Sequence record: PZ452594.1 | Direction: 5' to 3' (one strand) | Length of the DNA: 64,000 nt | Source: a phage | In this document: piece by piece, positions 3,088 to 46,341 of the stretch | Numbering within the stretch: the stretch's first letter is position 1 | Layout of the letters: the number at the start of each line of letters is the position of its first letter | Notes under the pieces: model-generated | What the model was told of the DNA's origin: nothing | The model's input: the letters and a program-made list of their open reading frames with translations, nothing else | Databases searched by the model: none | Program-made: the position numbers and the translations under genes

Positions 3088-4047
3088 TCACTTCCACTGC
3101 ATTTCGCACGCTAATTGAATGAAAAGATAAGCTAGATGCAATTCAGTATTAGCTGCAATACCATGATACTGATTATTTTCGCCGACAATTTCGTACATAC
3201 GAATAATACTCTGTGGAGTTACACGTGAATAAATTTCTTCGGCAAGTTTACCAACAAACCAAGAATAATCTGCTGCATATTTTGGTGCTAAAGCTCTGAG
3301 TTGTTTAACATCTTTATTTTTGAGAGACTCAAGAACATCATCAATAGCACCACGATCGTTAGTAACCAGTGATAAAATACCAGCATCCAAAACACCTTTA
3401 GATGAATAACTATCGAGCTCGCCAATAGTTTTACGAAAATCAGGAAAATTCTTTTTAACCAAAGCTGCTACAACTTTCATATCAGCTATAGCAATTCCTT
3501 CATGCTTGCAGATTTCAGTCAATCGACGAATCATCTGCTTCATCATTTCAATTTTATCTTCATCGGTCGGTTGACCGAATGTAATAACTCGGCAGCGTGA
3601 CTGAAGCGGTTTAATAATACCATCAATATTGTTAGCAGTAATAATAATACTACAGTTTGAACTATAAGCTTCCATAAAGGAACGAAGATGTCGCTGAGAC
3701 TCTGCTAGCCCTGAACGGTCAAATTCATCAATAACGATTACTTTTTGACGACCATCAAATGAAGCTGCACTGGCAAAATTAGTCAAAGGACCGCGAACGA
3801 AATCAATTTTACAATCTGATCCATTCACAAACATCATATCAGCATTTACATCATGACACAATGCTTTTGCTACAGTTGTTTTACCTGTTCCTGGAGAAGG
3901 AGAATGAAGAATAATATGTGGAATCTTACCTTTACTTGTAATAGATTTAAAGGTTTCTTTATCAAAGGCGGGAAGAATACATTCATCGATAGTAGATGGA
4001 CGATATTTCTGTTCAAGAATGTGTTCTTTTTCATTTACGGTAATCAT
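3088..4047 (-). CDS. 44: clamp loader ATPase gp44 (319 aa)
   Basis: Walker A GTGKTT; track start at 4062 is TTG; ATG at 4045-4047 preceded by GAGGAA gives MITVNEKEH. Confidence 0.9.
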
Positions 4048-4082
4048 AATTTCCTCATTCAAGTTTTAGTGTAAATTATAAA

Positions 4083-4094
4083 GGGCCGAAGCCC
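4083..4094 (-). terminator. GGGCUUCGGCCC hairpin between genes 45 and 44
   Basis: plus gggccgaagccc. Confidence 0.4.
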
Positions 4095-4098
4095 TCTA

Positions 4099-4785
4099 TT
4101 AAAAATCGTGGGTAGAATCAGCTTCAAGAGCTACTACATAATTCGCGTGTTCACCTTCAAATTTAGCAGCACCTTGTTTACCTTTTGCCCAGAGCAGAAG
4201 TTTATAATTTCCTGGTTGCATTTTCATATTTGCCATATTGATAATGAAATTAAATGTATTTTCACCATCATAATCACCAAGAGTCAAAGAATATTTAACA
4301 CGGGTCAAAGCAGAATCTTCCACTTTATTAAAACCGTTAATTACGATTTTACCTTCTTTTACTGTGATAGCAATTGTATCAATCTGCAGACCGCGAGATA
4401 CACGCAACAGCTGCTGAAGGTCTTCAGCTTTAATTTCAGTAACAACAGATGCTACCGGGAATGGAATTGGTTTATTAGGAGCAACTACTGTACTCGGATC
4501 GGCTGCTGGCCAAAAAATTGTTGAACGAGCATCAGCAATTTTAATATTTCCATCTTCTGACTGGGAAATTTCTGCATCATCATTAACTAGGGACAGAATA
4601 CCGAGAAAACCGTTCAAATCGTAAATCGCTACATCAAAATCAATAGTGTCAGAAATATTTGCTTCTGCATAAGTTGTACCATTAACTGCGCGAGTCATAA
4701 TAAATTGACCGGATTTAAGCATAATACCAGAGTTAATAGTAGCGAAATTTTTAAGCAGAGCAGTAGTATCTTTAGACAGTTTCAT
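4099..4785 (-). CDS. 45: sliding clamp gp45 (228 aa)
   Basis: MKLSKDTTALLKNFATINSGIMLKSGQFIMTRAVNG... matches T4 gp45. Confidence 0.9.
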   Translation of the reverse strand: MKLSKDTTALLKNFATINSGIMLKSGQFIMTRAVNGTTYAEANISDTIDFDVAIYDLNGFLGILSLVNDDAEISQSEDGNIKIADARSTIFWPAADPSTVVAPNKPIPFPVASVVTEIKAEDLQQLLRVSRGLQIDTIAITVKEGKIVINGFNKVEDSALTRVKYSLTLGDYDGENTFNFIINMANMKMQPGNYKLLLWAKGKQGAAKFEGEHANYVVALEADSTHDF

Positions 4786-35906: not shown

Positions 35907-36287
35907 TCAATTAGAAAATAAATTTATCCAAGATTGTTCTTTAATTAAAAATGGCTCAGAATCATATGCCATTAAACTTTGGGTGATTAGTCCTTTAAAA
36001 GGTCCATCAATAAATTCCATGGTAAAATATGGAATTTTATTCATTAACTGTGCGTTAGGAGCAGTGCACAAAACTCTGCATCCTTTGAATACGCCTTTTT
36101 GTAATTTGTATTGCTTGGGATAAAATTCGCTTAAAATGTTGTTATTTGCCAAAATTTCAAAATGATTCACCAATTTATTTTTAATAGTTTTTGGCGAAAA
36201 ATAAAGATATTCGAAAAGCTGTGTGTCTGTCATCATTGCATTCCGATTACGAAAAACTGCGGACGAGTAATACCACCAATGCAACAT
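35907..36287 (-). CDS. hypothetical protein (up to 126 aa)
   Basis: ORF track; start uncertain. Confidence 0.4.
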
Positions 36288-36829
36288 TTACTATTACAGC
36301 AGTAGTGTACAGTGTCAATATGGACGCTATAAATCTTATCCATATCAGGAGATTTGACAGGCTCATCAATTATATACAAAATTCGCGAAAGCGATAAACC
36401 TCTGAACTTACTTCCTTTATTACCAATAAAACTGCGCACAGAATCAGTAAATAAACGAAAACGTATATCATCATTAGAATAACGCAAAAATTCCTTTTTA
36501 ATGTTATTTGCAGAAATTTTAGCGTAAGCTGAAGTATTAGAAAGAACAATAACTGTTCCGCCATCATACAGCCAATTAGCAGCAAAGTTAGTCACAGCAA
36601 TTGATTTACCGGATTGACGTCCACCATCTATACGAAGTGTGCAGTACTGTTTAAGTAATTCTTCAAATGGCGGGATATATTCGTTTTTACAAATTTCTTC
36701 TACTCTAGCATCAGAATGGTGTGTAAAAGCATTCATCAGGGATAGATACGGGCCAGTTAAAAATGTTCTCATATTTTCTCTCTTAATTTTTGGGCCATTC
36801 CATGGCACATGAGTTGTCCATTCCTGCAT
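36233..36829 (-). CDS. P-loop NTPase-like protein (up to 198 aa)
   Basis: Walker A GGRQSGKS, Walker B-like ILYIIDEP; start uncertain. Confidence 0.45.
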   Translation of the reverse strand: MQEWTTHVPWNGPKIKRENMRTFLTGPYLSLMNAFTHHSDARVEEICKNEYIPPFEELLKQYCTLRIDGGRQSGKSIAVTNFAANWLYDGGTVIVLSNTSAYAKISANNIKKEFLRYSNDDIRFRLFTDSVRSFIGNKGSKFRGLSLSRILYIIDEPVKSPDMDKIYSVHIDTVHYCCNSKCCIGGITRPQFFVIGMQ

Positions 36830-36913
36830 TACCCATTACCGCGCTTTGGCTCGACCTTATTACAGGTTGGCGGGAATCCCTCACAGAATCATGAGGTCCA
36901 GGTTGTTCCCATA

Positions 36914-37387
36914 TTATTTGAACGATTTAACGTACTGAATAGAACCTTTACTATTTACGAAAGCGATTTTACCATTTTTATTATACATGGTAGCAGTACG
37001 CTGATAGCCATAAGTTTGTTTACCAGATTGATAACCAACTAATGCGAAATTATCTTCGCCCATTTTATTCTGTTTAGCGCGAATGCGTTCATGACCATGT
37101 GCCATAAGAACCTTAGCATCACCAGTTGCAATGGATCTACGAGTTTTTTCATCTTCAACTGTATTAACAAAGTCGTCAAATGAATCAAATTTAGCATGAG
37201 ATTTATTATACAGTTTTCCATCTACTGCATAATTATATCCCTGTACATCCATCTCAACTTCTGTACCATCATCCAATACAGCAGTGATTTTTTGACCTTT
37301 TTTAAATTTCAAAAGATCAGTAAAAGATTCAGCAATAATTTGAGAATTAATAGCTGCTTCAGTGATAAATTCTTGATATGTTTTCAT
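36914..37387 (-). CDS. internal-protein-like protein with N-terminal capsid-targeting sequence (157 aa)
   Basis: begins MKTYQEFITEA (T4 IP-type CTS ending in the prohead-protease E|A motif); ATG at 37385-37387 after AAAGGAAAC. Confidence 0.6.
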   Translation of the reverse strand: MKTYQEFITEAAINSQIIAESFTDLLKFKKGQKITAVLDDGTEVEMDVQGYNYAVDGKLYNKSHAKFDSFDDFVNTVEDEKTRRSIATGDAKVLMAHGHERIRAKQNKMGEDNFALVGYQSGKQTYGYQRTATMYNKNGKIAFVNSKGSIQYVKSFK

Positions 37388-37396
37388 ATGTTTCCT

Positions 37397-37813
37397 TTAA
37401 ATGTAAATATTTTTACCGTAATACTTATACCAATGTGGTTTCATTAAAATTTTTTCATCAAGTCGTTGTTGACTCAATTTAATAGCTGATTTGCATGGAT
37501 TATAATCATTTTTCCATTCTACTGGAATATCGCTGATGTCAGGAACTTCAGTATCTTTTATACTGAACCCGCGTTTTAAGCATTCCGTTATAATGTCCGA
37601 TTGACGCTTTCGCAAAAATTCTAACTTATCGTAAAAGAAAGTAACATGACCAGAACCTAAAATAAATTTAGAAGATATTTTAAAATCTTTAACGCGCTTA
37701 CCGTTTGCCACATGCTTACGAACTATACCAAAAACACGCGGCAATTCACGGTATTCTGCGATTAAATGTTGATCAGCAAGTTCAGATACTAAAGTCAAAT
37801 TAATACGAGTCAT
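37397..37813 (-). CDS. denV: endonuclease V, pyrimidine-dimer DNA glycosylase (138 aa)
   Basis: [38 protein letters not shown]... matches T4 DenV with divergence. Confidence 0.85.
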
Positions 37814-37836
37814 TTTATCCCTCCAAGTAACTGTGA

Positions 37837-37872
37837 ATATACTATCACAATTCTAGGAAAAAGTAAACAACT
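37837..37872 (-). promoter_or_regulatory. early promoter for denV (GTTTAC, 18 nt, TAGTAT)
   Basis: sense GTTTACTTTTTCCTAGAATTGTGATAGTAT. Confidence 0.5.
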
Positions 37873-38841
<969 letters not shown>

Positions 38842-46090: not shown

Positions 46091-46112
46091 CCTATCTAAA
46101 AGTAAACTTATT
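46076..46112 (-). promoter_or_regulatory. early promoter (GTTTAC, 18 nt, TACTAT) with 24-mer ttgatagggtaatagtatcactac
   Basis: sense GTTTACTTTTAGATAGGGTAGTGATACTAT; 24-mer at 46067-46090. Confidence 0.5.
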
Positions 46113-46341
46113 TTTTACGAAAAATTGATTTATATTTATCAGCCCATTTCTCAATGACTTTTGCCGGGCCATAGATAACAAAGTAATCGCCAAACTCTTC
46201 ACCACCGAGTTGACCGAAATCATCTAATGCATCACGAAGAACTCCATGAGGCATTTCACCCATTTTATCTTTCTTGCCAGTGTAAATAAACTCAACTTTT
46301 ACATCAGCAGTTTCAGCAATAAATTCTTGATACGTTTTCAT
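46108..46341 (-). CDS. internal-protein-like protein with N-terminal CTS (77 aa); ipI-locus variant
   Basis: ATG at 46339-46341 after GGAGAA gives MKTYQEFIAETADVKVEF...; track start 46359 is GTG. Confidence 0.6.
   Translation of the reverse strand: MKTYQEFIAETADVKVEFIYTGKKDKMGEMPHGVLRDALDDFGQLGGEEFGDYFVIYGPAKVIEKWADKYKSIFRKK

Follow-up and report, generated by a model that had tools for sequence, protein, structure and literature searches.

The phage DNA analyzed here (the window, 64,000 nucleotides of record PZ452594.1) carries between the lysozyme gene e and a homologue of vs.8 an open reading frame at 36914..37387, minus strand, which starts MKTYQEFITEAAINSQIIAES in the ORF list and encodes 157 amino acids, the coordinates including the stop codon. 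The locus raises the question of whether this gene specifies a new injected effector that has taken the place of T4 ipII and ipIII, as a sequence-only reading of the window had proposed, or an internal head protein that is already known, and in either case what the protein may do in the cell. The features discussed below are collected in Table 1.

Table 1. Positions of the features at the e-to-vs.8 locus and of the second internal-protein gene, in window coordinates
Feature	Coordinates	Strand	Basis
ip4 (ipIV) coding sequence, 157-aa precursor	36914..37387	-	ORF list, Pfam, PHROG, T2 identity
Capsid-targeting sequence MKTYQEFITE, codons 1-10, ending in an I-x-E prohead protease site	37358..37387	-	Likeness to T4 IPII/IPIII leader
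Codons 11-20 (AAINSQIIAE), variable linker ending in second [I/L/M]-x-E site	37328..37357	-	Family alignment
Conserved DNA island (ribosome-binding site and leader), recombination joint of cassettes	37356..37415	-	blastn against T4 and teqhal
denV-ip4 spacer, 9 nt, AGGAAACAT, ribosome-binding site	37388..37396	-	Direct reading
denV' allele (pyrimidine-dimer glycosylase), part of swapped cassette	37397..37813	-	Pfam Pyr_excise, PHROG 1183
T4-type early-promoter-like sequence, GTTTAC ... TAGTAT/TATATT, e-denV spacer	37836..37868	-	Direct reading and homology
e (T4 lysozyme), left hotspot anchor	37873..38367	-	97% identity to T4 e; Pfam Phage_lysozyme
Two TATAAATA late-promoter motifs before e	38381..38401	-	Pattern search
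vs.8 homologue, right hotspot anchor	36233..36884	-	blastn, tblastn
Second internal-protein gene, 77 aa, MKTYQEFIAE/TADVKVEF..., ipI-type setting	46108..46341	-	Motif scan, PHROG 8111

The gene is almost certainly Ip4, a member of the internal-protein family. Its product matches Pfam PF24183 (DUF7412) with 319.4 bits against a cut-off of 27 (E=5.7e-96), aligning over its full length (residues 1-157 on profile positions 1-158), and it matches PHROG 3155, "internal virion protein," likewise from end to end (E=6e-102); the window protein is the founding type of both families. Phages T2, RB18, and RB33 encode a protein that is 100% identical, the gene is named ipIV in RefSeq T2 and annotated as Ip4 in RB51 and ime09, and the annotation of teqhal cites a "putative Ip4 internal head protein [wV7]." Across T2, K3, RB18, RB33, and RB51, identity to the window protein is 99-100% over all 157 residues, and the gene lies in the same hotspot adjacent to e. 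The BFVD viral structure library gives one significant match and no other, UniProt Q38388, "Ip4 [Enterobacteria phage K3]" (99% identity, TM 0.94), the accession format of which suggests a deposit of the 1990s. When 50,697 phage records were surveyed by tblastn, Ip4 was present in 471, with at least 99% identity in 291 of these, a count above those for IPIII (261) and IPII (198), the other two internal proteins surveyed at the e-vs.8 hotspot. Descriptions of this gene, of its leader, and of how variable the locus is go back decades, and ipIV/Ip4 is a known, named gene of T4-like phages that is annotated in hundreds of genomes.

These results bear directly on the proposal of a novel anti-defense effector peculiar to the window phage and standing in place of ipII and ipIII. 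The proposal can point to the absence of both genes from the window, to a mature region unrelated to IPI, IPII, and IPIII, and to the lack of a solved structure like the Ip4 model; set against the identical T2 gene, the 471 records, the Pfam and PHROG families, the old UniProt entry, and the presence of Ip4 alongside IPII or IPIII in Klebsiella phages, it is hardly tenable. The sequence-only reading was right that a real internal-protein-type ORF with a capsid-targeting N terminus is present, which lies on the minus strand, and went wrong on its novelty. It had also said that it would yield to a close homologue of a characterized T-even internal protein at the same locus; an identical protein at that locus is what T2 provides, although "characterized" is not a word that fits it. 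Database searching and structure prediction, which were among the checks it had put forward, lead to the known Ip4 family and so remove the novelty, while the mature part is left with no relative in sequence or fold. We consider it very probable that the locus as a whole is explained by a T2-type internal head protein, ipIV/Ip4, residing in the e-vs.8 hotspot, that is packaged, processed, and injected.

The leader is the feature from which this route is read. A scan of all six frames of the window for M[KR]x[YF]x[ED][FL] returns only two ORFs of real length, ip4 and the gene at 46108..46341, the third match being a fragment of 13 codons, and on such sequence evidence a chance match is ruled out for the Ip4 leader. 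The ribosome-binding site and leader lie within 60 nt (37415..37356) that match the start of T4 ipII at 95% identity; the start of T4 ipIII is matched over 47 nt at 94%. The leader of T4 IPII and IPIII, MKTYQEFIAE, is of the same type, and both precursors are annotated "AA -10 to ..." in T4 record X04567. At the end of the Ip4 leader, I8-T9-E10/A11 (the slash marking the predicted cut) presents the L/I-x-E motif of the prohead protease, gp21. Ip4 thus has in common with IPII and IPIII the ten-residue leader, the ribosome-binding site, the e-to-vs.8 hotspot, a basic pI, and the expected route of packaging and injection.

Ip4 differs from IPII and IPIII in a second conserved site of protease type, I18-A19-E20/S21. 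E20 is invariant in 12 family members, which all have I, L, or M three positions earlier, and a second site, L-N-E/S, is kept in two of three distant homologues; residues 11-20, between the two sites, are modeled with low confidence (mean pLDDT 52). T4 IPI has its sole [L/I/M]-x-E site at residue 19 (ITE/A), which fits the 76 residues of mature IPI* obtained from a precursor of 95 amino acids (review PMC3012670). IPI*, a GmrSD-CT596 inhibitor with a solved NMR structure, is small, basic, and injected, and its leader of 19 residues is comparable to what cleavage at E20 would remove from Ip4. As the second site is conserved, the linker before it is variable, and T4 IPI offers a parallel, we infer that Ip4 is probably cut a second time after E20, leaving residues 21-157 as a mature protein of 15.5 kDa with a pI of about 9.3.

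Packaging and processing of Ip4 are likely. The leader would take the protein into the prohead scaffolding core, gp21 would cut it off after E10 and probably remove ten more residues after E20, and the remaining basic protein of ~15.5 kDa (pI ~9.3) would stay with the packaged DNA and be injected along with it. Our search of the literature, papers on Yersinia T4-like phages included, turned up neither proteomic data on virions nor an N-terminal sequence for Ip4, and we therefore base its proposed packaging, cleavage, and injection on the leader and on what is established for T4.

The expression signals have to be reconciled with this route. With only 9 nt between denV and ip4, no private promoter is possible in that spacer, whose AGGAAACAT recurs unchanged ahead of T4 ipII and ipIII. 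The e-denV spacer of 59 nt contains GTTTAC, about 17-18 nt, and TAGTAT, as are found before T4 ipIII and T2 ipIV; T2 ipIV and T4 ipIII have almost the same upstream sequence, the GTTTAC element just after e included, and in the window this element now precedes denV'. It likely drives denV and ip4 together, its function as a promoter being taken from homology because a generic sigma-70 scan raised no flag at 37836..37868. As for late transcription, a pattern search of the region upstream of ip4 returned just the two TATAAATA motifs before e and none directly ahead of ip4. A scan of the minus strand between the motifs at 38381-38401 and ip4 found no terminator-like site, and late read-through from the promoters upstream of e into ip4 appears possible. 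The T4 ip genes likewise have no TATAAATA motif within 110 nt, so that packaging is not called into question by ip4 having no late promoter of its own.

It could nevertheless be argued from this arrangement that the leader is a leftover of recombination and that Ip4 is an unpackaged, cytoplasmic early protein co-expressed with denV, given that ip4 has no promoter of its own, follows denV after 9 nt behind an early-type promoter, and has its closest late promoters in the two upstream of e. A relic would decay, yet the leader, the I-x-E site, and the E20 site are conserved throughout the family, and distant homologues keep leader-like N termini. In three other genera, moreover, ip4 abuts or overlaps e, and in T4 the absence of a nearby late promoter extends to the established ip genes. 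We regard an unpackaged Ip4 as very improbable and retain the packaged, processed protein for what follows.

The setting of the gene accounts for much of what had seemed unusual about it. On the minus strand, the order in the window is nudE, e (38367..37873), denV (37813..37397), ip4, and the vs.8 homologue (36829..36233). Ip4 is encoded in the e-to-vs.8 hotspot, one of two variable hotspots for internal proteins (the other extends from 57B to tRNA). The cassette found there is ipIII-ipII-denV in T4, ip4 alone in T2, where denV is absent from the 24-kb locus, denV'-ip4 in the window and in phiD1, and denV'-IP105-ip4 in teqhal-type phages. The window therefore differs from T2 in a divergent denV between e and ip4, and from the teqhal-type phages in lacking the additional internal protein of 105 amino acids that these carry between denV and ip4. 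The placement of denV and e in the sequence-only reading was correct, Pfam and identities to T4 of 78% and 97%, respectively, agreeing with its gene names, and so was its contrast between e-denV-ip here and e-ipIII-ipII-denV in T4; the early promoter that it saw between denV and e corresponds to the early-promoter-like sequence described above by homology to the regions upstream of T4 ipIII and T2 ipIV. Its "non-T4 position" for the gene does not hold, as the hotspot is the same and e-ip4 is the layout in T2 and three other genera.

The way in which such cassettes are exchanged is suggested by the DNA itself. Homology to T4 and T2 that runs from nudE through e ends at 37824, about 50 bp beyond the stop codon of e; on the far side of the cassette, the match to T4 begins again precisely at the ip4 stop codon (36914) and extends into vs.8. 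Between these points, the leader island is the only segment with 94-95% identity to T4, the other T4 matches being the divergent denV (79%) and a short inverted match (85%). In teqhal, a 49-nt copy of the island flanks the extra IP105 gene on both sides. From the identity of the island and its flanking copies in teqhal, it may be concluded that cassettes are exchanged by recombination at the leader DNA.

The flanking genes are close to those of T4, with protein identities of 97% for e, 95% for nudE, 97% for vs.8, and 98% for vs.7, and denV' is 78% identical to T4 denV as a protein and 79% as DNA. We observe that this 78% stands beside flanking genes with 95-99% identity to T4, and that denV is missing from the T2 locus. 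As the allele here is divergent and the T2 locus has none, denV moves as part of the internal-protein cassette and not of the backbone. In T4, the 26-27 nt preceding ipII correspond to the 3' end of a window-type denV (AAAAATATTTACATTTAA, coding for KNIYI-stop; 37397..37415 in the window), apparently a recombination scar from an earlier arrangement in which such a denV allele directly preceded ipII. An inverted repeat, ctagaattgtga...tcacaattctag, is also present upstream of T4 ipII. The inverted match mentioned above pairs 37821..37866 of the window with the T4 ipIII-ipII spacer (4248..4292 of the T4 locus sequence) at 85% over 46 nt, both copies overlapping the early-promoter region.

Outside Tequatrovirus, the association of ip4 with e is closer still. 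In phages Melville (Salmonella, Gelderlandvirus), KEN37 (Klebsiella, Jiaodavirus), and SP1 (Serratia, Muldoonvirus), ip4 begins at the e stop codon or within it and is followed by another ORF, which is an internal-protein gene in Melville and KEN37; that of KEN37 encodes a clear IPIII homologue of 189 amino acids (4062..4631 of the KEN37 locus sequence). As T2 and these three other genera have e-ip4, this is a widespread layout, and it is T4, without ip4, that looks unusual. The Klebsiella phages PKO111 and K65PH164 encode Ip4 together with IPII, and such co-occurrence in Klebsiella phages implies that Ip4 is no general replacement of IPII or IPIII. Within the window, tblastn finds no convincing ipII or ipIII homologue beyond the leader of ~11 residues, the only longer match being IPII against the Ip4 ORF itself (33% over 79 amino acids, leader included). 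The earlier statement that both genes are missing is therefore borne out for this window; that Ip4 replaces them holds for this genome and not in general, Klebsiella phages carrying Ip4 with IPIII or IPII. Two small internal proteins also neighbor ip4 in other phages: one of 87 amino acids in Melville (PHROG 2667; 4063..4326 of the Melville locus sequence), and the one of 105 amino acids in teqhal, which falls into PHROG 3966, "unknown function," despite a perfect leader (4014..4331 of the locus sequence).

Conservation sets ip4 apart from what might be expected of an arms-race gene. Compared with its counterparts in T2, teqhal, and phiD1, ip4 has 7-11 synonymous and 0 non-synonymous differences, and it is functional and under strong purifying selection. 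Between genera, the identity of Ip4 is 61-71%, against 63-67% for e, 43-65% for regB, 40-55% for nudE, and 34-42% for vs.8; ip4 is conserved across four genera on a par with lysozyme, a pattern unlike that of a rapidly diversifying arms-race protein.

The mature protein itself offers few relatives. With leaders removed, Ip4 compared with other internal proteins by blastp gives E values of 0.5 or worse, even in a set of seven sequences, so that its dissimilarity to IPI, IPII, and IPIII, noted in the sequence-only reading, is real; between Ip4 and T4 IPII and IPIII in particular, the mature regions have no detectable similarity. An exhaustive profile search against 1.8 billion representatives yielded 7 matches, among which there was no protein of known function. 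Members of the family, fragments, or a frameshifted copy account for five, and one is a weak repeat match in a protein of 1879 amino acids. Three of the 7 are distant homologues (E 1e-17 to 1e-22) with leader-like N termini (MNFEQFLNE/S). A profile search of the PDB gave nothing below E=0.5, and scans with PADLOC and NCBIfam gave only sub-threshold noise. The AlphaFold model, of moderate confidence (pLDDT 75.7, pTM 0.69), is a mixed alpha/beta fold; fold searches found no solved structure that resembles it, and its weak structural neighbors are all small beta-barrels (of the Sm, SH3, Tudor, L19, and WYL kind). Nor does Ip4 resemble the proven GmrSD inhibitors Ip1, Ip2, and Ip3 in sequence or fold. 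A strongly acidic surface, as in DNA mimics of the Ocr/ArdA type, is likewise not what is found, since mature Ip4 is basic (pI 9.1-9.3; 22 K+R against 17-18 D+E).

Residue conservation narrows the kind of activity to be expected. When the distant homologues are included, the invariant residues besides the initiator Met comprise G, V, K, N, S, A, L, Q, Y, and T. His64, His99, E111, and D112 are conserved in the close family and lost in the distant homologues. An enzymatic reading of the HGH and ED motifs was considered and ruled out, as these residues are not kept in the distant homologues; with no residue of catalytic type surviving there, Ip4 would be a binder and not an enzyme.

What Ip4 might bind is framed by its better studied relatives. 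In T4, Ip1, Ip2, and Ip3 are inhibitors of three different GmrSD type IV restriction enzymes, one apiece, and none protects against the target of another (Silas et al. 2025, PMC12373910); as each of these disarms one such enzyme, Ip4 is an obvious next candidate. An anti-defense function has already been published as the expectation for this whole gene class and is a reasonable one for Ip4. We accordingly place first, as a tentative reading somewhat short of probable, that Ip4 is an anti-defense inhibitor that would bind and stoichiometrically inhibit a host DNA-targeting defense enzyme in the manner of Ip1, Ip2, and Ip3; a DNA-associated protein ranks second, and other readings receive little weight. 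The hypotheses are narrowed by purifying selection, conservation across genera, the second protease site, the absence of catalytic residues, and co-occurrence with IPII or IPIII.

Some published results weigh against the inhibitor reading. In PMC12373910, ten ip genes were tested, and apparent interactions of "ip4-10" with GmrSD variants were not reproducible (Supplementary Fig. 9); the "ip4" of that study is linked to the window protein by name only. We found no published test of ip4 in the literature beyond that study, in which no GmrSD target is confirmed for ip4-10. IPII and IPIII differ from Ip4 in this respect, having GmrSD targets there where none is identified for Ip4. In the same study, both T2 and T6 proved sensitive to GmrSD-ECOR17 and GmrSD-ECOR21, and because T2 carries an identical ipIV, its restriction by these two variants counts against the guess of anti-restriction. 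Conservation across genera together with zero non-synonymous change likewise counts against a fast arms-race role.

One way to accommodate these observations, which we hold to be possible but doubtful, is that Ip4 is a conserved injected protein with a conserved non-GmrSD target common to Escherichia, Klebsiella, Salmonella, and Serratia. This target could be a host factor or a defense of another class, or it could be the entering phage DNA. It would explain the lysozyme-level conservation, the zero non-synonymous change in Tequatrovirus, the co-occurrence with IPII or IPIII, and the lack of a confirmed GmrSD hit.

It is also conceivable, though again rather unlikely in our estimate, that Ip4 is mainly DNA-associated. 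As a basic protein of small-beta-barrel type without a specific host target, it would bind the DNA of the phage itself, both inside the head and during entry, and would thereby neutralize charge, help ejection, or non-specifically shield the entering DNA. Consistent with this are the basic mature protein (pI about 9.3, 22 K+R against 17 D+E), invariant K, N, S, Q, Y, and T, which are typical of nucleic-acid-binding surfaces, and weak structural neighbors that are all small beta-barrels. Conservation at the level of lysozyme, with no non-synonymous change in Tequatrovirus, suits a constant partner such as DNA, and Ip4 co-occurs freely with IPII or IPIII. The absence of a GmrSD target in PMC12373910 and the abundance of internal proteins in T4 head DNA (about 1000 molecules, PMC3012670) point in the same direction.

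Other observations concern the surroundings of ip4 and its sequence. The N-terminal region of vs.8 (36781..36884, minus strand) has indels of -1 and -7 nt relative to T4 that break the first ~37 codons; its start is GTG where T4 has ATG, and the long ORF restarts at an ATG at 36829. From the DNA sequence, the vs.8 protein of the window is N-terminally different or truncated. Within ip4 there are A6 runs at 37298..37303 (codon 29), 37288..37293, and 37144..37149, and a database protein of 39 amino acids corresponds to ip4 with one extra A in the first of these, hence its truncation. A contingency-locus reading of the runs was ruled out despite this one frameshifted database copy, a 2025 preprint on T2 contingency loci having reported zero slippage at the ipIV poly-A tract; the copy probably reflects an error in sequencing or else a rare mutant.

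The second internal-protein gene of the window, at 46108..46341, encodes a product that matches PHROG 8111, "internal virion protein," with E=4e-51 and that, unusually, is not basic (precursor pI 5.8). The gene is preceded by its own GTTTAC early-promoter-like element, and the sequence upstream of it is similar to those before T4 ipI and the two T2 internal-protein genes next to 57B.
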